From: a virus
Reading direction: 5' to 3' (one strand)
Length of the DNA: 21,724 bases
UHGV virus genome: UHGV-0132790
Shown: in pieces, positions 873 to 21,201 of the stretch
Numbering within the stretch: the stretch's first letter is position 1
How the letters are laid out: every line of letters begins with the position of its first letter
The notes under the pieces: generated by a model
Database searches by the model: none
Seen by the model: the letters and a program-made list of their open reading frames with translations, nothing else
Told to the model about the DNA's origin: nothing
Made by a program: the position numbers and the translations under genes

Positions 873-1169
873 TTATACCTCTGAATCAATATTAATTTGG
901 TGACGGGCGATGGTTTCAGCCATGTAGCGGATGTGTTCTGCCATGCGTTCCTGAAAATCGACATCGTCATCAAATGCACGGGAAATAGCTTTTTTGCTGG
1001 CCCCGTGACGTTGCAGATTATCGATGCATAGCGATTCAAACAGGTGTTGGGGCAGACCTTTTTCCAGGTCGTCTGCCAGCTCAGCTTCAGTTTCTTCACG
1101 GGCAATTTGCTGGTAGTGTCGTGCCCATGACTGCTCTTCAATGCGATCGGGGATAAGCCAGGCATTCAT
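873..1169 (-). CDS. gam: Gam, RecBCD inhibitor (98-aa short form)
   Basis: Translation ...[86 protein letters not shown] is close to lambda Gam. GGAGGT lies 8 nt upstream of the ATG, and the ATG overlaps the stop of the upstream 690-aa ORF. Confidence 0.9.
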
Positions 1170-3238
1170 GATTTATCACCTCCGAAATTTTCAAGCCTGT
1201 TGGCAATCATGATGGCGATATCAGGGATTGCTGGCGCTGTGGCTATACATGCGGGGTTGGCGCACAAACCATAGACGGCGGCAATCACGAGCTGTCTTTT
1301 CCAGTCGAGAGTTACTGGCTCAGAATTGGCGTCATCGCCGGACGTATCACTGCCTGGCTCGTTCTGAACAACGGTTTCGCCCTCCTGAGCGGTATCAACA
1401 GAGTTTTCCTGAATGATCTTCTCCTCAGTTTGTGCTGAGTCTTCTCCATCAGCGGCGTCATTTTCTCCAAAAGTTTCTGTGTAAGTGCTATCGCCCATTA
1501 CCGCACTACAGTCAGGGCAGTTACCCCCGCCAGTCTGACCACAGACGCGGCAGTTTTTTTCCAGCTCCGGTTGCGCTACTGGGGCTGGCTGTTGCTCTTC
1601 TGGCCCGTTTTGTTGCGTATCCGGGCTGTTTTGTCCCGCTTCTGGGGCAATTTGTTCCACTTTGGACTGATTCTGGTCCTCAGTGTCGCGAGCCTGGATC
1701 CCCTTAATCCACTTCGGGTCGGTTGGGGCGCTGATGCCTTCAACGAACTCCCCACGAGAGGCAGCCAGCAATTTGTCTGCATCGACAGGATTTTTGGGCG
1801 AAATGTTTTTCCTGGCTTCATGGAGTTCTGCTCTCAGTTCCTGGTATTTCGTTTCTACAGATGAGACATTTTCCAGTGATTGCGTGTCCGCATTATGTTT
1901 AACTGGAATTTCTTCCACTGATTCAGGCGCTGCCTGTTCATTAGACATTGCGTCCGATGTTTGCTGCTTTTCTTCATCGTCATGTATCTCTTCTGCTGTT
2001 CCGCGCTGCGGCATTGGGGCTGATGAGCGACCGCAGGCGATTTCCACGATTTCCGGATCCGGGTTAGAGTGATCGGTTTCGGTCAACACTTTGTTGAGAT
2101 ATTCAGTCACGCGCGCCGGGATAGCCTCAATGCCGATTGGTGCTTCTTTCACTGAAGCCACCACAATGGCGCGGGAATAATCCAGCCCACCGGGCATGGC
2201 GATGAATTTGTCACGGAAAACAGAAAAGGGCGGCTTATTCTCTGACACGATTTCTTCAACGCGTTTTGCGTGTGCTGGGTGCAGGTTATAAATATCCACA
2301 TCCATTGAACGGGCCAGAACGCCAGTGGCAATGTCTCGCGCCAGTGATGCCTGATTGTGGGTAAAGCCTTCGCCACGATCGGTAAGATTTCCGCCGCCAG
2401 CGTTAGCACCGGAAGGCGTACGAGTGATGCCTGTAACATAATTTCCTTTCTGCCATTCTTTTGCCAGCAATCCCTGATCCACATAGTCTGTTTTCATCCA
2501 GGTGGAGATGAACTTGTCGAATTCAGCCGGGCTGATGCGATGATTTGCAGAGTGGGGGAATGCTTTCCCTACAGATTCAGCCAGGCGACTAAGGTGATAG
2601 TTCGTCAGTTTATCCAGTTCATGATGCGCGGCGCGCACAGCAGTAAGCAGGCTCTGAAGGTAACTGTCCTCTGTGTCCATCTCCATACGGATCACGTTAT
2701 TGCGTTGTTCTGGTGTGGCATGATGCCGGTATTTTCCATCTTCATCTTTGCTGAATAAGAAGAGGTGAAGGAAGCGATGAGTAAGGCTCAGAGTGGCGAC
2801 GGGAATTTCACACTCAGAACAGTCATCGTCGCTGTCCGGGGATTCGCTTTTCTCCACATCATCCGGAATAGTTCCGTCCAGGTTATCGTTGTCATCGCCA
2901 GCAGTTGTGGCATCTTCACCGTTGATGTTGTCATCGAAGGGGATAGCCATCATGGTGATGCCATCGTTACCGCCTTTTTCATAGCGGTTGCAGAATTCAG
3001 TATCAAACACGCCTTCCGGTGGAAGGTCATTCACGACGGGGAAATTTACGCGAACGGGTTTTTTGAAATCATCCTCGTCGTAGCCTGCATCGTCCATGGC
3101 TGCAATGCAGCGGGAAACTGCGACAGAAAGTTTTCTGGCCTCGGTCCAGAAAAAACCGCCTTTGATGCCAAGGCGTTTTCTGACTTTATCGTTTTTTGCT
3201 TCGCAGTGTAGTGCAAAAGTCTGTTTATCAGCGCTCAT
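1166..3238 (-). CDS. Large (690 aa) acidic hypothetical protein with Cys-rich cluster; function unknown, candidate host-takeover or anti-defence factor
   Basis: Long uninterrupted ORF with ATG at 3238 and AGAGGT upstream. The stop overlaps the gam start. Contains D/E-rich tracts ([25 protein letters not shown]) and a [16 protein letters not shown] motif. No family recognised from memory. Confidence 0.6.
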
Positions 3239-3732: not shown

Positions 3733-3815
3733 TTTGATTTTTCCGTGATTGATAATTAATGCGGTTTTATTTCGGCTTGTCTGTTACAGATATGGAAGGT
3801 GTATTTTATTACTCG

Positions 3816-4034
3816 TCACAACGACGCTGCTTTTACGGGTAAGCCATCGCGCCCGATGAAAACTTTAATCATGCAGTCGGTAATGCATGTTTTTGTTGTG
3901 AAGTTACGAATATAGAGTTTTCTCTTTTCAATATTGTTTGCTGAAGCGATATATGTCCGACCTTCATGAAGAACATAATCGCCAGGCGTCACGCACTGAC
4001 GTGGTATTTCATCAGTTCCGAAGTGATGAGCAAT
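3816..4034 (-). CDS. Hypothetical small protein (about 73 aa)
   Basis: ORF in operon orientation. I chose the ATG at 4034 (MIAHHFG...) because GGAGA lies about 6 nt upstream; the ORF track starts at a GTG at 4055. Confidence 0.35.
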
Positions 4035-4210
4035 CATAATTATCTCCATTTTCACAAATGAACTTTGTTGATGCGGTGCCTGGTGCCTCCAGGTGACGTT
4101 AACCAGTTAACAACTAACGCCGGGTCAGGGGACGATGACTTTCCGTGACATCCTGTCGGTTTAACTGTTCCGCGTGCGCATAGCCGCATTCACCGCATCA
4201 CAAAATTCAC

Positions 4211-4254
4211 TTTAAAAAGGGCGGACATCAGCAATCGGCAAACCGATGTCCGCC
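4211..4254 (-). terminator. Intrinsic terminator inside the early-left operon (tL-like)
   Basis: Perfect 10-bp stem GGCGGACATC / GATGTCCGCC (4219-4228 / 4245-4254) with a 16-nt loop. On the minus strand it is followed by CTTTTTAAAG. Confidence 0.5.
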
Positions 4255-4493
4255 AAGGGCTACACACAGCAATGTTGTTATTCACAACCGGAAGCGCACG
4301 GTCGAAGAAATCTAACGACAAGCCTTCAATGGGAAAGAGTCTTCGCCGTGCACTTTCGTGTTGTACCCTGGCTTTCAGGGTAATGTCTGTTCAGTAAACT
4401 GAGAGTGCCGGAACTTACCCGTGTCCGGCGCACGATCTCCACCTCACCCGTGGAGAACTCCTCAACTACAAACCCCGTAAGGAGAGTGAATTT

Positions 4494-4703: not shown

Positions 4704-5031
4704 CGTTCATTACGGTTCTTAAACAACAATCAGTGGGCTTGATGTTGTTCTTTTCAAGCTCACTTGCCATCACTTCCATTATTCTTGCACTTACACGAAT
4801 TATTTGGTGGCTGTAAGCGATGCAACTGTCGCTGATATTGCTGTTTATTTCTATTACTTCATTTTCACCATTAGCATCAACTTCGGATGCGCTGTTTTCA
4901 TTATCCTGTTTCAGTGCTTTTTCTGCCATCTGGATGCGTGTCAGCGTTGCGGAATTTGGGCTAAGTCGATAAACCTGTCTGGCATCTTCCAGAAGCAGGG
5001 CGATAATGTGCTTCAGTTCTGTTTCGTTCAT
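4672..5031 (-). CDS. Hypothetical protein (about 119 aa)
   Basis: ATG at 5031 (MNETELKHIIALL...) with GGAG 7 nt upstream; the track's start at 5052 is a TTG. The 3' end overlaps the convergent 4494-4703 gene and its terminator, so the C-terminal extent is uncertain. Confidence 0.4.
   Translation of the reverse strand: MNETELKHIIALLLEDARQVYRLSPNSATLTRIQMAEKALKQDNENSASEVDANGENEVIEINSNISDSCIAYSHQIIRVSARIMEVMASELEKNNIKPTDCCLRTVMNVIYYSMFRSR
4722..4756 (+). terminator. Putative intrinsic terminator for the 4494-4703 gene
   Basis: AACAACA...TGTTGTT stem with an inner TCA/TGA pairing, followed by CTTTTC. Confidence 0.4.
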
Positions 5032-5062
5032 AGTTAACTCCGGTAGTTGCAATTTATTAATA

Positions 5063-5776
5063 TCAGGCGGTCAGCTCTTTAAGCTTCTGAACTGCTTTAT
5101 TCATTTCATCCATACAGTCGATGAATTCGTCCAGTTTAAGCTGCATTTTTCCGGCGGCCTGAAGAATTTCAAGTTTTAAGGGCGCAAGTTTTTTGTTGAA
5201 TGCATCATCTTCCTGGCGTTTTTTCTCCGCAATTTCGGCGGCTTTCAGCAATTCTTCAGCCTGTTTTCTGAGTATTTCTGGTGAAGGTGAAACTGCTTTG
5301 AGGTTATTCATTTCAGGTTCCTGTTGTTGCAGAATTAATTTGTTGCATTCTCTGCGTGAGCGTTTCATTGCAGATTCGCACTTCTTGCAATAAATGGCTC
5401 TCCCGTCACGCTTGCTGGCATCTGAATAAAAATCATTGACTGATTTTGTCTGCCCGCATCTGGTACATAATTTTGATTGAAGGTCCTTAATGATTGTGAC
5501 GTTTCCTTCCCGTTTGGGATATCCATATTTTTTGTGGCGGAAAAAGGTTACTCCGTTACCAGAACCTTCTTTTCTGACCTTAAATACAATGATGCTTTCC
5601 CGTTTATCGATAAAATCTATGAGCTGGTTTCTCTCCTTTCCTGACAGTTCGGCAAATGTCTTAACTTTTTTAGTAACTTCCGTAAGGCGAACTCCATCAG
5701 GCATTTTTTCAACGAAGTTTTTAATCTCTGCAAGCGGACGCCATAACTTTTGCGGCAAAACTGAAGGCGTGGTCAT
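5063..5776 (-). CDS. Hypothetical protein (about 237 aa) with zinc-ribbon (CTRCG...CKKCE) and a K/E-rich probable coiled-coil C-terminus
   Basis: ORF immediately downstream of N. ATG at 5776 lies just after the N stop (TGATTGATG), suggesting coupled translation. Confidence 0.6.
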   Translation of the reverse strand: MTTPSVLPQKLWRPLAEIKNFVEKMPDGVRLTEVTKKVKTFAELSGKERNQLIDFIDKRESIIVFKVRKEGSGNGVTFFRHKKYGYPKREGNVTIIKDLQSKLCTRCGQTKSVNDFYSDASKRDGRAIYCKKCESAMKRSRRECNKLILQQQEPEMNNLKAVSPSPEILRKQAEELLKAAEIAEKKRQEDDAFNKKLAPLKLEILQAAGKMQLKLDEFIDCMDEMNKAVQKLKELTA

Positions 5777-5779
5777 CAA

Positions 5780-6163
5780 TCACCTCGCCGTCAGTTGTTT
5801 TGATTTCCGGTAGCCTGCCGCGTAAATGGCTACGTTTGGAAGACATACACCAGTTTCTGGTTGCTTATGTCCAAACTCATTCGCGTACACAATGGCTGCT
5901 CGCTCCAGATTGCGTCTGTATTCTTTCTGTTGCCAGATCACGTCCTGTGCCATGAACTTAATTGGCTTAGCGTCTTCTATGCGCTCAGGCGTTTCGTGAG
6001 TACCTTTAGCCTGAATCTGCGCTCTGCTTAGAGTAGGGCGGTGTAATACTTCTGAACTTATTGCTTCTTCGCGGGCCAGTACGCAGTTAGCTAATGCCTT
6101 TGCCTTTAAACGCTCACGACGACGAGAACGTGAATTGCCTTTGAACTGAGTTCTGCGTGTCAT
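5780..6163 (-). CDS. N: N-type transcription antiterminator (non-lambda allele; resembles the N of Stx/H-19B-type phages)
   Basis: 127-aa product MTRRTQFKGNSRSRRRERLKAKALAN... has an N-terminal arginine-rich motif like lambda N (QTRRRERRAEKQ). It is the first gene downstream of pL. AGGAGG lies 6 nt upstream of the ATG at 6163. Confidence 0.8.
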   Translation of the reverse strand: MTRRTQFKGNSRSRRRERLKAKALANCVLAREEAISSEVLHRPTLSRAQIQAKGTHETPERIEDAKPIKFMAQDVIWQQKEYRRNLERAAIVYANEFGHKQPETGVCLPNVAIYAAGYRKSKQLTAR

Positions 6164-6330
6164 ATGGAACCTCCTGATGAACTTTGGTGGTGTGGTAGGT
6201 GGGAGACCCATTTCGACCTGTTTCGGCCTACTTCAATTCGGCAATAGTCCCGCAGGCCTCGCCGCTTTACGTGCGACATATTCCCGTCCATGAACCCTTC
6301 ACCACACCCCAAAGTTCACTTTGGTTATTG

Positions 6331-6349
6331 CGCTTTGTCAGCGCCGTAG
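6331..6349 (-). promoter_or_regulatory. Candidate nutL element
   Basis: The pL transcript reads CTACGGCGCTGACAAAGCG here. The same 19-mer, with one mismatch, recurs in the pR transcript at 9061-9079, in the expected nutL and nutR positions. Confidence 0.4.
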
Positions 6350-6412
6350 ATTCATATTTGAATCGTTGTATATTCACCGCCCTGGTGAGTAGTGCGTCCT
6401 GCTGATGTGTTT

Positions 6413-6475
6413 AGTATCACCGCCAGTGGTATTTATGTCAACACCGCCAGAGATAATTTATCACCGCAGATGGTT
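6413..6475 (-). promoter_or_regulatory. pL promoter with operators oL1, oL2, oL3 (lambda immunity type)
   Basis: TATCACCGCCAGTGGTA (6415-6431), CAACACCGCCAGAGATA (6439-6455) and TATCACCGCAGATGGTT (6459-6475) match the lambda oL operators. On the minus strand the -35 TTGACA (6441..6436) and -10 GATACT (6418..6413) are 17 bp apart. Confidence 0.85.
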
Positions 6476-6632
6476 ATCTGTATGTTTTTTATATGGATTT
6501 ATTTTTTGCAGGGTTGAGTGGCTTGGGAGGTGATCGAGAGATCTGAATTGCGATGTTTAGTGAGTTGTATCTATTTATTTTTCAATAAATACATTTGGTT
6601 ATGTGTCTTTAGGTGGGGGGGGTGAGGCAAAG

Positions 6633-6659
6633 AAAACCCGGCGCTGAGGCCGGGTTTTT
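6633..6659. terminator. Bidirectional intrinsic terminator ending the cI-cargo operon (timm-like)
   Basis: AAAACCCGGC-GCTGAG-GCCGGGTTTTT: a 6-bp GC stem flanked by an A-run and a T-run, directly after the stop of the 6660-7436 gene. Confidence 0.65.
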
Positions 6660-7436
6660 CTAGGCTACCAGAGACTCAATCCAAGAGTCTCTGGTATGGA
6701 ATGGCAACACTCGTGCGGTATCATTAAATAGTAGTGATAGTTGCTGTAGCTCAGGTGTTAACCCATCGCTGTCAACTATTACAAATCTATTGTTTATGTC
6801 AGGAACGACCTGACTTAAGTCAACAATCTTCCCAACTGTTGAGTGGGCAGTATTCCATCCCTTACTGCTGGCAAGGCTTACCGTAAACCCGCGTTTTGGT
6901 GGTATTAGTCGAGACTCATTCCTTAGCGTTAACGGAACAGTAATGTTATGCCCACTAATACCTTTCACTTTTTCCTTTAAGGCTAGTCGCTTCCCAAGCC
7001 CTGCTGATTTTAAGTAACTGATTACACATTTTTCGAACTTATCGTCTTTGACCTCAGCATACCAATCAGCAGTTTGGGCGGATGCAAGAATCCCACCACG
7101 AATAACATTTGCAGTTACCTGTCCAACGGACGACTCATCTGCCCACGCAGATATCTCTCCAGAGTCATTTAATGAAATTCCTTGCGAAGCGAGTGATGAC
7201 CTGATCAGATCAATTTTCTTTTTAGTCAGGTGGATGCCGCGTGATTCAATATTCATCAATGTATCGCAGTAGTCTGTAACCCTATACTGACCACTCATCT
7301 CTTGAACGAATACACTTATCTGCTCACAATCATCGTAGTATGTGAATGGACTAATAACGCGCAGCAACGTGTCGCTCATTGGGTGGCATTCAAACCCGAG
7401 CTTAGATATGACTGTTGAACACGTTACATTTCCCAT
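6660..7436 (-). CDS. Hypothetical protein B (258 aa) of the two-gene cassette in the rexAB slot
   Basis: ORF between pL/oL and cI, same strand as cI. Its ATG at 7436 overlaps the end of the upstream gene by 13 nt. AT-rich relative to cI. No similarity to RexB or any family I recognise. Confidence 0.6.
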   Translation of the reverse strand: MGNVTCSTVISKLGFECHPMSDTLLRVISPFTYYDDCEQISVFVQEMSGQYRVTDYCDTLMNIESRGIHLTKKKIDLIRSSLASQGISLNDSGEISAWADESSVGQVTANVIRGGILASAQTADWYAEVKDDKFEKCVISYLKSAGLGKRLALKEKVKGISGHNITVPLTLRNESRLIPPKRGFTVSLASSKGWNTAHSTVGKIVDLSQVVPDINNRFVIVDSDGLTPELQQLSLLFNDTARVLPFHTRDSWIESLVA

Positions 7437-12794: not shown

Positions 12795-12826
12795 ATGACG
12801 GGGGCTTACGTGTTCAGAAAAGTGAT

Positions 12827-13501
12827 TCATATAGAGGCTGAATCTGATCTTTTTTGTTCACGTCTGGCTTCCACCATTGCAGGCAGAGTGAAGGCGTAGA
12901 CTAAAAACATTTCGGTAAAACTCAGGATCTGGCTTGCCTCAATTGGTGTGAAAACTTCATCTGTATGAACTGCTTTATTGGCATCAATTCGTACAATATG
13001 AGCCCATTCCTTCATCTGTTCAGTGATCAGGCCTTTTTTGTAAATCATCTGAATACGTTGCGACAGCGATTCTTTTCCTGCTTCATCGCCGAGCAGTTTT
13101 TTCGTGGAGATATCGAGGACTCTGCGACAAAGAATAACCACTGTGTCGTACCGCCTCCTCTGTAAATCCTCTTTTGCCTCAACAAAAGTACGGTCTGCAA
13201 CCGGGGGCGTATATTCTGGTGCGGTAATTTTTTTGACCACAGGATAGATCTTGCGGAAACGGTACTGGCTATTTCCTGAAATCAGAATATCGAGGTCTTT
13301 TTTCTGGCTTTCCGCCATGGGACCGTGATAGTGGTCTGATGGGATTTCAACAATAGCAACACCTCCTCGATGACAACTTCTGCATACAAAAGCGACGTTA
13401 AAAAAAGGTGTTTTTTCAATTTGTTTTTCGGCAAATGCCTCAATAACAGCTCGCTCTTTTAAACAGTGCGGGCATGTGATATCAAAGGAGACTAAACCCA
13501 T
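12827..13501 (-). CDS. Hypothetical protein (about 224 aa): N-terminal zinc ribbon (CPHC...CRSC) and a C-terminal region resembling DUF4145; candidate abortive-infection or defence protein
   Basis: Minus-strand ORF inside a plus-strand operon. ATG at 13501 (MGLVSFDITCPHC...) with GAGGAA upstream. The C-terminus KESLSQRIQMIYKKGLITEQMKEWAHIVRIDANKAVHTDEVFTPIEASQIL recalls the DUF4145 pattern from memory. Confidence 0.55.
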   Translation of the reverse strand: MGLVSFDITCPHCLKERAVIEAFAEKQIEKTPFFNVAFVCRSCHRGGVAIVEIPSDHYHGPMAESQKKDLDILISGNSQYRFRKIYPVVKKITAPEYTPPVADRTFVEAKEDLQRRRYDTVVILCRRVLDISTKKLLGDEAGKESLSQRIQMIYKKGLITEQMKEWAHIVRIDANKAVHTDEVFTPIEASQILSFTEMFLVYAFTLPAMVEARREQKRSDSASI

Positions 13502-13745
13502 GGATATTCCTCGCGAAATTAAAGAAATTAACGAAATCATTGAGGTTACTGATCGCCCCGAGTTTACCCTCATGCGTCGTTATGAAACAGGAACCGACGA
13601 ACAAAAATACATCATGGTTACAGCATTGGCTGTGATGGCGATAGAAAGGGAGCGAAGGGAAAAGGACGTAATGGTTATTCCTGAGAGAAATGATTCACCG
13701 GATTTGAGATGGCAGGAGCCGGAGTGGGATGTGGTAATCCGGTGA
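13500..13745 (+). CDS. Small hypothetical protein (81 aa)
   Basis: ATG at 13500 with AAGGAG 9 nt upstream. Its start codon shares the CATG at 13499-13502 with the divergent 12827-13501 gene. Confidence 0.35.
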   Translation: MDIPREIKEINEIIEVTDRPEFTLMRRYETGTDEQKYIMVTALAVMAIERERREKDVMVIPERNDSPDLRWQEPEWDVVIR

Positions 13746-13792
13746 TTGATATTTCTCTGGGGTAAAGCGCCGCCAGAATGACGGCGCGGTGG

Positions 13793-14098
13793 TTAAGCAT
13801 GAGGCGAAATTTCTGCCGGGCGGTATTTTGTTGAGAGATGAGATACGTCAACTTCTCTTTCCGCTTTTTCGAGGCTCCATGCCGTCTGGAGACGAATCCA
13901 TGAAGACGGAGTTCCACCCAGGACAGCAGCGAGACGAACAGCCATTTCAGGAGATATTGTCGCATTACCTGAAACCAGTCGCTGAACAGTGGAAGGCGCG
14001 ACATCAAGCGCTCTTGCCAGTTCCCTGATTCCAATATTCTGATCTTCCAGAATATCAGCAATAATTTCTCCGGGATGAGGGGGGTTAAACATCGCCAT
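13793..14098 (-). CDS. higA: HigA-type antitoxin (XRE-family HTH)
   Basis: 101-aa MAMFNPPHPGEIIADILEDQNIGIRELARALDVAPSTVQRLVSGNATISPEMAVRLAAVLGGTPSSWIRLQTAW... is typical of HigA/VapI antidote proteins. Lies downstream of the toxin with a 1-nt TAATG overlap. Confidence 0.8.
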   Translation of the reverse strand: MAMFNPPHPGEIIADILEDQNIGIRELARALDVAPSTVQRLVSGNATISPEMAVRLAAVLGGTPSSWIRLQTAWSLEKAEREVDVSHLSTKYRPAEISPHA

Positions 14099-14376
14099 TA
14101 GTGGTAATCCTCGTAGTTAAGAATATAAGCATCGCCGTTCCGAAACTCGAATGTGATTCTCCAGTTACCGGAGACGGTGACAGACCATGTATCGGATCTG
14201 TCCCCCTGCAACTGGTGCAGCCTGTACCCGGCAAGGTTAATATCATCAATGATTTCAGCTTGATCTATTACCTGAAGGCGCGTTCTCAGGCGTTTAACGT
14301 GATTGGGATTTATGCCTGATGCATTTCCTGTTTCAAAGAAACGTTGAAGTCCTTTGTGTTTCCAGCTTTTTATCAT
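14098..14376 (-). CDS. higB: HigB-type toxin (RelE/ParE superfamily)
   Basis: 92-aa MIKSWKHKGLQRFFETGNASGINPNHVKRLRTRLQVIDQAEIIDDINLAGYRLHQLQGDRSDTWSVTVSGNWRITFEFRNGDAYILNYEDYH. ATG at 14376 with AGGAAA upstream. Toxin-first gene order is characteristic of higBA. Confidence 0.8.
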   Translation of the reverse strand: MIKSWKHKGLQRFFETGNASGINPNHVKRLRTRLQVIDQAEIIDDINLAGYRLHQLQGDRSDTWSVTVSGNWRITFEFRNGDAYILNYEDYH

Positions 14377-14713
14377 GCTTGTTTCCTGTTGCGTTACGCG
14401 AATCATTATAGCGACTGTTGTGTAATGCGCAACGGTTGTTTGACAAAAATAGGTATCCGGGATTATATTCACCGCACGCCAGCAAAATCTGGCGTCGGGA
14501 TTGGCGTCCTGGATAGAGACCGCGACAGATACACGCCGCGAGCGTGTTTTTTATTGTCGTATGCACGCGCACATCTGAATTATGGTGGGCTGTGTGGGGG
14601 CGGAGAGATCCGCGCCGGTCGGTTTCCCGGTTACGCCAACCCTGCACAGTTCACCACCAGACGATTGGCGTCGTCGGTGGTGAGTTATTAAGAAACCACT
14701 CGAGGGCGTCATT

Positions 14714-15406
14714 ATGACAACTCAAATCTCTGTTGAAACTCTCTCCCCGATCACCCATAACCAGATTCCTGTTATTACCACCGAACTTTTGGCGCAGTTG
14801 TACGGTGCTGAAGTTAAGAACATTCAAAATAACTACGCCAGAAATGCTGAGCGCTTTATTGAAGGAAAGCATTTTTTCAAAGTGGCTGGCGATGCCCTGA
14901 AAAATTTGCGGGTAGCTTTAAACTACTCACAAAATTTGCAACCATCTTTAAGAGGGTTACAAATTTCCCCGAAAGCCCGCTCCCTCATCCTCTGGACAGA
15001 ACGAGGCGCAGCCCGTCACGCCAAAATGCTAGAAACCGATCAGGCGTGGGAAGTGTTCGAAAAACTGGAAGACTGCTATTTCAGCCAGGGAAAAACAGCA
15101 CCAACCGAACAGCAGCCGCAGATTCAGCCACAATTCACAGCCGAGGAAATCATCCTCCTTTGCTACATGCAACTCTGGATGGAAAAAGCCCAGGACCTTA
15201 GCAAGCAGCTGTACCCCATAATGAAAGAGCTGAACTCCTCATACACGAACAAGCTGTATGACATTGCGTTTGAGACTATCTACATGGTGACGAAGAACAG
15301 AGACGCGCTACTAAGGGAGGTAACACGTCTCGACATGTCAAGTTCCGTTATCCAGCGGGCCATGCCAATGCTGAAAAGCCTGCGGGCAAGACAATTTGAA
15401 TTCTGA
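14714..15406 (+). CDS. ORF6N-domain phage protein (Roi or antirepressor-like DNA-binding protein)
   Basis: N-terminal VITTELLAQLYGAEVKNIQNNYARNAERFIEGKHFFKV resembles the ORF6N domain consensus. 230 aa. Confidence 0.6.
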   Translation: MTTQISVETLSPITHNQIPVITTELLAQLYGAEVKNIQNNYARNAERFIEGKHFFKVAGDALKNLRVALNYSQNLQPSLRGLQISPKARSLILWTERGAARHAKMLETDQAWEVFEKLEDCYFSQGKTAPTEQQPQIQPQFTAEEIILLCYMQLWMEKAQDLSKQLYPIMKELNSSYTNKLYDIAFETIYMVTKNRDALLREVTRLDMSSSVIQRAMPMLKSLRARQFEF

Positions 15407-18311: not shown

Positions 18312-18510
18312 TTGTCTGGCTGCCGGAGAATTTGTTAAAAATTACATCGCGTGGTGAATCCCCCTCAGCGGCGGGGCATCTGGCAAAGTGTATGATCCAG
18401 CGAACATGCAAATTCAGTAGCCAGGCTGAATTTACCGGGAGGCACCTGGCACCATGCGACAGACAGAAATTAGGCTATACTTCAGCCCCTCTCCGGAGGG
18501 GCTTTTCTGT
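18312..18510 (+). ncRNA. Candidate small RNA or late-leader unit A (promoter to terminator)
   Basis: TTGTCT (18312-18317), 17 nt, TGtTAAAAA extended -10 (18333-18341). Perfect terminator AGCCCCTC-TCCG-GAGGGGCT (18484-18503) followed by TTTCTGT. No convincing ORF. Confidence 0.4.
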
Positions 18511-18687
18511 GCAGGATGTGTCACAGTTTCCTGAATTCTGAGTACTGTCCTGTTACTCAGGGTGCTATATTTTCTGACGTGATGAAAGTCTGCCGGAAGG
18601 CGGAACGTATCGGAAATGACCCAGTAGAGAAAACGTTGACTCAGATACCGATGCTGAGTTACCGGGAAACCGGCATCACATGACCGC

Positions 18688-18780: not shown

Positions 18781-18993
18781 TTGTCTGGCCAGCGGGAAGT
18801 TTGTTAAAAAAATATGGCATGGTGAATCCCCTGTGCGGAGGGGCATATCAGCGACAGGTGTTTGGTCACACCCCTTATCCTTTCTGGTGCGGGTTCAGGT
18901 GCTGATACTGAACTCACCGGGAGGCACCCGGCACCATGCATGAACGGTACATAGCGCTACTCTCCAGCCCCTCTCCGGAGGGGCTTTCTTGTT
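18781..18993 (+). ncRNA. Candidate small RNA or late-leader unit B (diverged paralogue of unit A)
   Basis: Same architecture as unit A: TTGTCT (18781-18786), TGtTAAAAA (18802-18810), identical terminator hairpin AGCCCCTCTCCGGAGGGGCT (18966-18985) followed by TTCTTGTT. Shared internal blocks GGTGAATCCCC and CACCGGGAGGCACC.GGCACCATGC. Confidence 0.4.
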
Positions 18994-19227
18994 GGATAAA
19001 AAAAAGCCCGCGCCGGGAAGCGCGGGTGGCAAGGAATAAACAACAAAACGTGAAGTGATCAATTTTCAGCTGGCGAATAATACCCGACAGTAATCACTCT
19101 GTGCAACTGTATGGTCTTTTTCGTATTGCGGGCTGTAGTCATCCTCCTGTTTCTGAACCCTTGTCCATGACTGACGTCAGCCCGCACCTTATCTTGATTG
19201 CATACACTATCCCTGCCGGGAGGAATA

Positions 19228-21201
19228 ATGGCATTTAAACACTATGACGTGGTCAGGGCATCATCGCCGTCAGACCTCGCAGGAAAACTGGCGCAAAAAC
19301 TGAAGGAAGGCTGGCAACCCTATGGTAGTCCGATTATCTCAAGCGCGGGTTATGGTGCTGAATTTATCCAGGCTATAGTCGCTGAAGGGGATATGACCTC
19401 TCCGGTAGTTTCACCGGGGGGAGATGGTACCCGGACTGTTGTTGTTGAACCAGAATATTACTTTGTCATTGCGCTGGCCGGACAGTCAAACGGCATGGCG
19501 TATGGTGAAGGCCTGCCGCTGCCGGAGACATATGACCGTCCGGACCCGCGTATTAAACAGCTGGCGCGTCGCAGTACGGTGACACCGGGTGGTGCGGCCT
19601 GTGCATATAACGACATCATTCCGGCGGACCACTGCCTGCATGATGTGCAGGATTTGAGCCGTTTTTCTCATCCGAAAGCCAGCGCAGAGCAGTATGGGTG
19701 TGTCGGACAGGGATTGCATATTGCCAAAAAGCTGTTGCCCTTTATGCCGGAAAATGCGGGTATTTTGTTAGTGCCGTGCTGTCGTGGTGGCTCTGCGTTT
19801 ACAGCCGGTGCTGACGGAACGTTCAGTGAAAGTTCAGGAGCGTCGGATAAATCTGAACGATGGGGCGTTGATAAGCCGTTGTATAAAGACCTGCTGACAC
19901 GCACTCAGGCCGCGCTGAAGGCAAACCCCAAAAACATACTGCTTTGTGTTGTCTGGATGCAGGGCGAGTTTGATTTAAAACAGGGAGCGTACGCCAGTCA
20001 GCCCGCCATGTTTGATGCCATGGTGGAAAAATACCGTTCTGACCTGGCGGGAGTATCCGGTCAGTGCGCTGGTGCTTCTCCTTCTCTGGTGCCCTGGATT
20101 TGTGGTGACACGACGTACTACTGGAAGGAGACGTATTCAGCGCAATACGATGCCGTCTATGGCGCATACAAAACCAAAGCCGGTAAAAATATCTTCTTTG
20201 TGCCGTTTATGATGGATGACAATGGTCAGAAAGTCGGGACCAATGAACCGTCAGAAGACCCGGATATTCCGGCTATCGGGTATTATGGTTCCGGTGGACG
20301 AACGGATGCGAAGAGCTGGACAACATCCGATCGTAAAACCCACTTTGGTTCATGGGCGCGTCGCGGAATTATTTCCGACCGTCTGGCAACAGCCATTCTT
20401 CTGCATGTGGGCAGAGTGGCAGATTTTGTTTCCGGGAAAGTGACAAAAGCCGCGGTTTCTTCAGGCGGAGGCGTATCGCAACCAGTACAGGAGAGTGGCG
20501 ATACTCAGCCTGAAGCCGTTGTCCCGACAAAGATACAGTCAGTGCTGGCTTATGATGTGAATGCGGAAAATGCCGCTCTGGCTTCGCAGGGCTGGACGCT
20601 GACAGATGTCAAAAACACGCTGGTCAGTGACAGTGGTTCAGGTAAAAAAGCCCTTCGTCTTGAAAAACCAGAAAATGGTCTTGCACAGAAAAAGACCTGG
20701 AAAGTATCGCACGCAATTGATGCCGGTAAGGGGAAGGAGCTGTTCGATAACGGCGGTGAAATCACGCTGCGCTTTAAAATCCCCGATGATGTATCTCTCA
20801 ATGCTTCTGCAAATCAATATTCTGCGGGTATTTACTGGCGCGGTAGTGGATGGCCGGGAGCGGAATCAGAGGAGGGTTATATTGCGGCCTTCTATCTGCA
20901 GACTGATAAAACAAACATCAATGTGATGTATCATGCAAACACCACATCACAGCGGCTTGGTAGTTATGGTCCGTTCGATCACGACTGGCACACGCTGACT
21001 TTCCGCTTCCCGGGTGGTGGCTCGCTGAACGTCACGCCGGTGCTTGATAATGCAGCAGGAAAACCGTTTACGCTGACCAGATGGACGAATGCAGCCTTTG
21101 AGGCCAACGCGCTGGCAATTACGGATATTACCGGAAATGCGGCAACTTACCCTGTGCTGATTGAAAGTCTTACTGTTGGTGTGAATGCCGTAGCAGCATA
21201 A
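19228..21201 (+). CDS. nanS-p: NanS-p-like sialate O-acetylesterase (SGNH/SASA hydrolase domain plus C-terminal domain), as found downstream of stx in Stx phages
   Basis: 658-aa protein from the ATG at 19228 (MAFKHYDVV...) with GGGAGG upstream. The GQSN SGNH-hydrolase motif in FVIALAGQSNGMAYGEG and the overall size and architecture fit the prophage NanS-p family. Confidence 0.8.
   Translation: MAFKHYDVVRASSPSDLAGKLAQKLKEGWQPYGSPIISSAGYGAEFIQAIVAEGDMTSPVVSPGGDGTRTVVVEPEYYFVIALAGQSNGMAYGEGLPLPETYDRPDPRIKQLARRSTVTPGGAACAYNDIIPADHCLHDVQDLSRFSHPKASAEQYGCVGQGLHIAKKLLPFMPENAGILLVPCCRGGSAFTAGADGTFSESSGASDKSERWGVDKPLYKDLLTRTQAALKANPKNILLCVVWMQGEFDLKQGAYASQPAMFDAMVEKYRSDLAGVSGQCAGASPSLVPWICGDTTYYWKETYSAQYDAVYGAYKTKAGKNIFFVPFMMDDNGQKVGTNEPSEDPDIPAIGYYGSGGRTDAKSWTTSDRKTHFGSWARRGIISDRLATAILLHVGRVADFVSGKVTKAAVSSGGGVSQPVQESGDTQPEAVVPTKIQSVLAYDVNAENAALASQGWTLTDVKNTLVSDSGSGKKALRLEKPENGLAQKKTWKVSHAIDAGKGKELFDNGGEITLRFKIPDDVSLNASANQYSAGIYWRGSGWPGAESEEGYIAAFYLQTDKTNINVMYHANTTSQRLGSYGPFDHDWHTLTFRFPGGGSLNVTPVLDNAAGKPFTLTRWTNAAFEANALAITDITGNAATYPVLIESLTVGVNAVAA

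Follow-up and report, generated by a model that had tools for sequence, protein, structure and literature searches.

A RAZR-like zinc-ribbon and DUF4145 (HEPN) gene, a candidate defence gene, lying antisense within a lambdoid prophage of Escherichia coli

The gene, its divergent partner and its neighbours

The window analysed here, that is, the whole stretch of 21,724 nucleotides of the virus genome UHGV-0132790, is a lambdoid E. coli prophage without stx that carries RecE/Bet, cI/cro/cII and a NanS-p-type esterase. On its minus strand, at 12827–13501, lies the gene for a RAZR-like zinc-ribbon–DUF4145 (HEPN) protein of 224 residues, a description that draws on the open reading frame, Pfam, PHROG, RefSeq and an AF2 model. 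The product corresponds to the RefSeq entry WP_032144013.1, named "DUF4145 domain-containing protein", and matches phrog_1305 (E=1e-63), for which the PHROG label is "DNA binding protein"; no NCBIfam model matches it. The longest minus-strand reading of the frame starts at 13573 and ends at 12827, but the ATG at 13501 is the preferred start, because it is preceded at a distance of 7 bases by a GAGG Shine-Dalgarno sequence (13509–13512, minus strand), fits the uniform MG(L/I)xS N-termini of 27 homologues and agrees with the RefSeq entry. The surrounding genes are all read from the plus strand and encode cII, O, a DnaC-like loader, DUF1627 and DUF977/Ren-like proteins and then Ant, NinB, RusA and NinH. 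The gene thus runs against the rightward early operon, as had been pointed out in an initial annotation made from the sequence.

The same annotation had proposed an N-terminal CxxC…CxxC zinc ribbon and a C-terminal region resembling DUF4145, and both parts hold. Codons 1–55 (13337–13501, minus strand) encode a Cys4 zinc ribbon of four beta strands with the pattern C10-x2-C13…C40-x2-C43, as seen in the translation, the alignment and the model. Its CPHC (residues 10–13) and CRSC (residues 40–43) are encoded at 13370–13474, and the four cysteines are invariant across the family alignment. Profile searches identify this N-terminal domain through weak matches to ribbons of the RPB9/TFIIS type, including 1qyp, the comparator ribbon used in the RAZR paper (PMC13017515). 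Codons 100–212 (12866–13204, minus strand) encode the helical DUF4145/HEPN domain, the presumed RNase effector, and the Pfam search that had been proposed returned DUF4145 (PF13643) over residues 118–197 with E=3.9e-9 and 36.9 bits, above the cut-off of 23.1. Within this domain the translation and the alignment to RAZR place an Rx7H motif, RIDANKAVH, with R171, N175 and H179 as its key positions (12965–12991, minus strand). Close relatives show no variation at these three residues, and conservation is still at least 90% among 101 diverse representatives that are 23–51% identical to the window protein. An AF2 model built with 28 family members (pLDDT 88.6) shows a four-stranded zinc ribbon at residues 4–52, a linker of helix and strand, and a helical domain from residue 100; the putative active-site loop, residues 172–179, is modelled at pLDDT below 50. 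The helical fold and the conserved Arg…His motif are those of the HEPN superfamily (DUF4145-like, Pfam clan KNTase_C), to which DUF4145 had been assigned, with zinc-ribbon fusions among its architectures (Anantharaman et al., 2013; PMC3710099). DUF4145 is a divergent HEPN RNase domain, and the zinc ribbon together with the linker is the presumed, hypervariable sensor half of the protein.

A conserved plus-strand ORF that the initial annotation missed lies between the DUF4145 gene and HigA. It encodes 81 residues (13500–13745; phrog_8371, E=2e-55), is supported by PHROG, homologues and an AF2 model, and has the same orientation as the early operon. The palindrome CATG (13499–13502) contains both of the divergent start codons, which overlap in it, and each Shine-Dalgarno sequence is placed inside the first codons of the opposite gene: the AAGGAG of the partner ORF (13485–13490, plus strand) within the DUF4145 gene, and the GAGG of the DUF4145 gene within the partner. 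The partner protein is modelled by AF2 as a three-helix bundle (residues 5–56, pLDDT about 90) with a disordered tail, and no relatives of it were found in Pfam, the PDB or PADLOC. Within the literature searched there was no earlier description of a conserved partner ORF with overlapping start, and by that measure the feature is new.

Beyond the partner ORF, on the minus strand, is the toxin–antitoxin pair that had been noticed initially. It is composed of a HigA antitoxin of 101 residues (13793–14098; TIGR02607, E=2e-25; HTH_3) and a HigB-like toxin of the RelE family with 92 residues (14098–14376; PF05015, E=4e-22 over its full length; phrog_3066). As in type II HigBA systems, higB is upstream of higA and adjacent to it, the two overlapping at 14098. 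The initial annotation had joined these genes with the DUF4145 gene into one defence or addiction island (12827–14376). This single-unit reading has been rejected, because the DUF4145 pair and HigBA occur independently in other phages; each is a separable module. HigA without the DUF4145 gene is found in dozens of Stx phages, the homology block of the DUF4145 gene and its small ORF covers 12806–13797, and the DUF4145-block and HigBA-block homologies meet at 13768–13797. The replication–nin junction is better described as a cargo hotspot than as one unit. At the junction of the modules, between the stop codons of the small ORF and of higA, a GC-rich hairpin of 9 bp (13767–13787, minus strand) appears in the centroid structure and is a weak terminator candidate: the 71-nt minus-strand stretch containing it folds with a centroid energy of −16.5 kcal/mol (z=−2.4), and only UUUA follows.

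How the DUF4145 gene is transcribed bears on another initial proposal, namely that it is an independently expressed moron. The genomic context fits this proposal (see the orientation of the family below), but its promoter side found no support, as upstream scans at 9/12 or 8/12 matches revealed no sigma-70-like promoter. Transcription may begin within the small ORF, at a weak promoter, or may reach the gene by read-through from higBA past the hairpin with its poor U-tract.

Two further regions of the window contain candidate regulatory RNAs. Upstream of ant (14714–15406), the plus strand at 14440–14700 holds a P1/P7-type antisense control cassette recognised by Rfam, with a c4 a1/b1 target (14463–14515), isrK (14476–14552) and the C4 antisense RNA (14578–14661), and a near-consensus promoter, TTGACA-18-TATATT, is located at 14440–14469. 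Because of this C4-type cassette and promoter, the anti-repressor module looks like a separate, RNA-regulated transcription unit. Two copies of the STnc100 sRNA family (18319–18512 and 18788–18996, plus strand; 140 and 130 bits) are found upstream of the gene for a 667-residue esterase of the SASA/NanS-p type (19198–21201).

Distribution and variability of the family

Copies of the DUF4145 gene with 95–100% identity are present in 37 of 5426 complete E. coli genomes, all of them chromosomal, and the gene has also been found in the Shigella phages 75/02 Stx and POCJ13 and in the Escherichia phages PhiR5_2 and PhiR12_3. The family is considerably larger. An exhaustive profile search returned at least 213 clusters (at 50% identity) with E≤1e-30 and 1428 with E≤1e-10, and the alignment was nearly full-length for most of the 150 matches listed. 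All the relatives examined are within prophages or viral contigs. The genomic context was sampled at 115 loci encoding relatives, in which phage marker genes were placed by tblastn; every one of the 300 marker matches flanking the gene was on the opposite strand, so that antisense placement is a rule of the family. Two slots are favoured, one at the replication–ninB junction, as in the window, and one where the lysis cassette meets the terminase, and a few members are beside int/xis or in the early-left arm. An example of the latter is phage PhiR12_3, with the DUF4145 gene and its small ORF at 5022–6680. In this phage the pair adjoins an anti-repressor and a RelE-type toxin–antitoxin pair different from that of the window; the association with toxin–antitoxin and Ant genes recurs there even though the toxin–antitoxin genes are unrelated at the DNA level. 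In E. coli G1/2, the O-like replication gene (4885–5978 of the locus) is annotated as frameshifted, in a prophage that is otherwise 98% identical and has an intact DUF4145 gene. This prophage copy may be defective, given the frameshift.

The partner ORF is a frequent but not a constant companion. An HMM of the partner detects it in 75 of the 115 loci, always at the same position and nowhere else in them, and the remaining 40 are single genes. Among the 113 loci with upstream DNA, 72 combine the CATG overlap with a divergent ORF that is 40 or more residues long. Loci with the partner are mostly at the replication–nin junction (54 early and 6 mixed vs 2 late), and those lacking it are mostly at the lysis–terminase junction (27 late vs 3 next to integrase). 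The 39 distinct partner sequences range from Enterobacterales to Burkholderiales around the core RPEF-L-QRYE…QK..V.ALIGKLIE, and homologues overlapping at CATG have been detected in Yersinia (52% identity, E about 1e-14), Paraburkholderia and many other hosts. The two genes are not inseparable: phiSTEC1589-Stx1c retains the partner ORF, and other DNA replaces the DUF4145 gene from a breakpoint that coincides precisely with the shared start. The slot in that phage (2686–3488 of the locus) contains unrelated DNA, with one ORF of 166 residues on the plus strand and, on the minus strand, overlapping ORFs of 96 and 104 residues. After it comes a different gene pair, likewise on the minus strand (3797–4445).

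The DUF4145 gene evolves under purifying selection (dN/dS 0.16–0.30), and its two halves differ widely in variability. Mean pairwise identity in the family is 0.42 for the zinc ribbon, 0.29 for the linker and 0.65 for the HEPN domain. In many pairs of cassettes the zinc ribbons are 35–57% identical, as against 82–96% for the HEPN domain and 91–98% for the small ORF. In one such pair the nucleotide identity falls from 96–100% to 16–50% over codons 5–105 and then returns to 78–92%. The flanks are conserved, and between them the zinc-ribbon half is a hypervariable cassette that has been swapped. An allele swap has likewise been observed in E. coli, where one allele is only 71% identical within flanks that are 94–98% identical and beside a nearly identical small ORF. 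The identity of the partner ORF correlates with that of the HEPN domain (r=0.78) more than with that of the zinc ribbon (0.59). Rarity, purifying selection and allele swapping give the gene a defence-like population genetics, and the swapping of the sensor domain points to an arms race with foreign proteins.

Relationship to RAZR and to other HEPN proteins

PD-T7-4 is an E. coli defence gene that was obtained by functional selection (Vassallo et al., 2022; PMC9519451) and later renamed RAZR, for ring-activated zinc-finger RNase, after work on the protein of E. coli UMB1727 (PDB 9y9c; Zhang et al., Nature 2026; PMC13017515). In RAZR, a Cys4 zinc ribbon at the N-terminus precedes a DUF4145 domain at the C-terminus, which works as a HEPN RNase, and either of the substitutions R146A and H154A abolishes defence. 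The protein is harmless alone, with no toxicity on overproduction. During infection, 24 copies assemble round the Erf-like Gp77 ring of SECphi27 or round the portals of T7, T3 and SECphi18, rings about 170 angstroms across, and the assembled enzyme cuts single-stranded RNA nonspecifically, leading to abortive infection. The zinc-finger domain is the most variable part of RAZR, and exchanging it exchanges phage specificity (all PMC13017515). The initial annotation had suspected a domain associated with defence in the window protein, and a zinc ribbon followed by DUF4145 is indeed the layout of this validated defence protein, to which the window protein is remotely homologous. The variability of the sensor half in the family is also what the RAZR work would predict for a domain that determines specificity.

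For the comparison, the RAZR-Ec sequence was rebuilt from two protein-search fragments and checked against P0204 (97% identical, 219 residues) and the numbering of the paper (AGN 68–70, R146 and H154). BLASTP aligned the window protein with RAZR at 24% identity over 141 residues (E=3e-5), placing RIDANKAVH opposite RIVGNQAVH. With narrow profiles hhalign gave a probability of 70%, and with broad profiles (101 and 51 sequences) of 98.2% with E=5e-14, the 123 aligned columns running from the end of the linker through the entire HEPN domain. When the window-family profile was compared with all PDB sequences, the best match was RAZR in 9y9c (24 chains, E=2.5e-6), in which a zinc-finger piece and a HEPN piece are collinear and the zinc ribbons align weakly (7.4 bits). 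In the BLASTP, hhalign and PDB profile searches alike, R171 and H179 align with the catalytic R146 and H154 of RAZR. On the other hand, a phmmer search of PDB sequences with the single 224-residue sequence gave no match, so that profiles were required, and the PADLOC model of PD-T7-4 (PDLC04109) scored the window protein at 15.5 bits (E=0.0022, 45% of the model), short of a family-level match, vs 339 bits over the full length for true RAZR; it took a profile–profile comparison to recover the homology. Against the 101 diverse family members, the PD-T7-4 HMM matched 49 at E≤1e-3, the best at 4e-11.

The two proteins have in common a length of about 220 residues, a collinear order of Cys4 zinc ribbon, linker and C-terminal DUF4145/HEPN domain, and the catalytic motif R-x3-N-x-A-V-H. 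In both RAZR and the window family, variation is much greater in the N-terminal sensor half than in the HEPN half, and both are carried on mobile elements. Nevertheless, the identity is only 24% and is confined to the linker and the HEPN domain, the zinc ribbons can hardly be aligned and the window protein has a linker about 30 residues longer. The gene for RAZR follows or overlaps an integrase gene that has the same orientation (PMC9519451), whereas the window family is antisense within prophage operons. Moreover, RAZR is a single-gene system, unlike the window family with its frequent divergent partner, and no partner ORF is present at the three RAZR loci examined. The window protein is a remote homologue of RAZR, which is its closest solved structure. 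From the distant homology and the many clusters in the profile search, its family is a sizeable sister family of RAZR and not RAZR itself.

Other HEPN systems are less similar. The HEPN toxins 5yep and 7ae2 are among the structural neighbours of the window protein. These HEPN-MNT toxins (SO_3166, PDB 5yep; Aphanizomenon, PDB 7ae2/7ae6) have an MNT nucleotidyltransferase as a partner, which the window gene lacks, and a canonical Rx4-6H motif instead of Rx7H; an N-terminal fusion to a zinc-ribbon sensor is, in turn, a difference of the window protein from them. DS-38 (DefensePredictor, WP_001313577.1; PMC13092281) is a validated E. coli anti-phage protein in which HEPN and zinc-binding parts are combined as in the window protein. 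Its sequence led to the rejection of an identification with DS-38, which is larger (366 residues) and has the reverse domain order, with HEPN at the N-terminus and several zinc fingers at the C-terminus. HepS of the Gifsy-1 prophage (PDB 9oik) is, like the window protein, a HEPN effector encoded by a prophage, and its PDB entry presents it bound to the lambda J tail tip.

Proposed function and alternative explanations

By analogy with RAZR, the gene probably encodes a prophage-borne abortive-infection protein of the RAZR type; its role in defence, its RNase activity and its trigger are all inferred from that relative. In the lysogen, the protein would be made constitutively and remain inactive. 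Upon infection by another phage, the zinc-ribbon half would bind a phage protein, perhaps a large ring of the kind formed by portals or single-strand-annealing recombinases. On binding, the oligomers would rearrange and bring HEPN domains together in pairs to build active sites; by cutting single-stranded RNA, these would halt translation and make the infection abortive. The small divergent ORF, whose expression follows the direction of lytic transcription, is probably a modulator of this system. Several observations count against a RAZR-type reading, namely the low sequence similarity with the poor score of the PD-T7-4 HMM, the weakly alignable zinc ribbons, the longer linker, the low confidence of loop 172–179, the lack of a detected sigma-70-like promoter, and the partner ORF, which is mostly present whereas RAZR works as a single gene.

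With portal and Bet rings of its own, a prophage would also risk triggering such a sensor itself. In the window, a RecE-family exonuclease and Bet are encoded at 1166–3238 (minus strand) and in neighbouring left-arm genes. Bet is a ring-forming single-strand-annealing protein. The question of self-triggering arises because rings of this same class trigger RAZR in SECphi27 (PMC13017515). A doubtful but conceivable answer is that the two genes make a cassette safe for its own phage. The lysogen would make only the sensor-RNase; on induction, antisense transcription and, in the early-operon version, the small protein would neutralise the RNase, so that the phage's own portal or recombinase rings, or any other trigger, spare the lytic cycle, with the CATG overlap making the expression of the two genes mutually exclusive.

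The partner ORF could be read in another manner, with the HEPN RNase as a constitutively toxic protein and the small three-helix protein as its antitoxin, in an addiction pair that stabilises the prophage and senses no phage. HEPN domains are common type II toxins, as the structural neighbours 5yep and 7ae2 illustrate, the small partner keeps a fixed position in the 75 loci and follows the HEPN domain in identity more than the zinc ribbon, and a HigBA pair lies next door. This explanation is nonetheless unlikely. The 40 loci without a partner have an apparently intact HEPN motif in those aligned (for example, in a subgroup of 212 residues), phiSTEC1589-Stx1c has the small ORF without the HEPN gene, and divergent genes with overlapping starts do not form a toxin–antitoxin operon, and the partner would be made only when lytic transcription crosses it. 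In addition, overproduced RAZR is not toxic (PMC13017515), and a hypervariable zinc ribbon is unexpected in an addiction toxin. It appears similarly improbable that the protein is no lysogen sensor and serves the phage in its own lytic growth or in superinfection, through RNA processing, host shut-off or the exclusion of related phages. The restriction of the family to prophages and viral contigs at fixed junctions (replication–nin and lysis–terminase) agrees with such a role, as do the failure to find an independent promoter and the possible read-through of the higBA transcript past the weak hairpin. However, at every locus examined the gene runs against the lytic operons, an orientation that disfavours expression in lytic growth; the swapping of the sensor domain suggests an arms race with foreign proteins, and among characterised proteins the nearest relative is an Abi protein that protects the host (PMC13017515).

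Finally, the label "DNA binding protein", carried by phrog_1305 and by phage annotation in RefSeq, would make the product a zinc-ribbon regulator in which the helical DUF4145 part is non-catalytic. Zinc ribbons of the RPB9/TFIIS type do occur in nucleic-acid-binding proteins, but R171, N175 and H179 are conserved and align with the catalytic residues of RAZR, a Pfam search of the protein matched no helix-turn-helix or other DNA-binding family, and the label appears to be an automatic name unsupported beyond the zinc ribbon. A regulator of this kind is very unlikely.

The RAZR-type reading, which is the preferred one, extends the interest of a bacterial immune protein able to sense the geometry of phage rings to a large, unannotated sister family that is barely registered by current defence-finder models. 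For Stx-type phages, the labels "DNA binding protein" and "DUF4145 domain-containing protein" could be replaced by "RAZR-like HEPN RNase, candidate defence". The partner ORF with its start overlap is a compact arrangement that could, speculatively, be a built-in off-switch. If the family is RAZR-like, it raises the questions of how a ring-building phage can safely carry such a sensor, and of what the swapped zinc-ribbon cassettes recognise.
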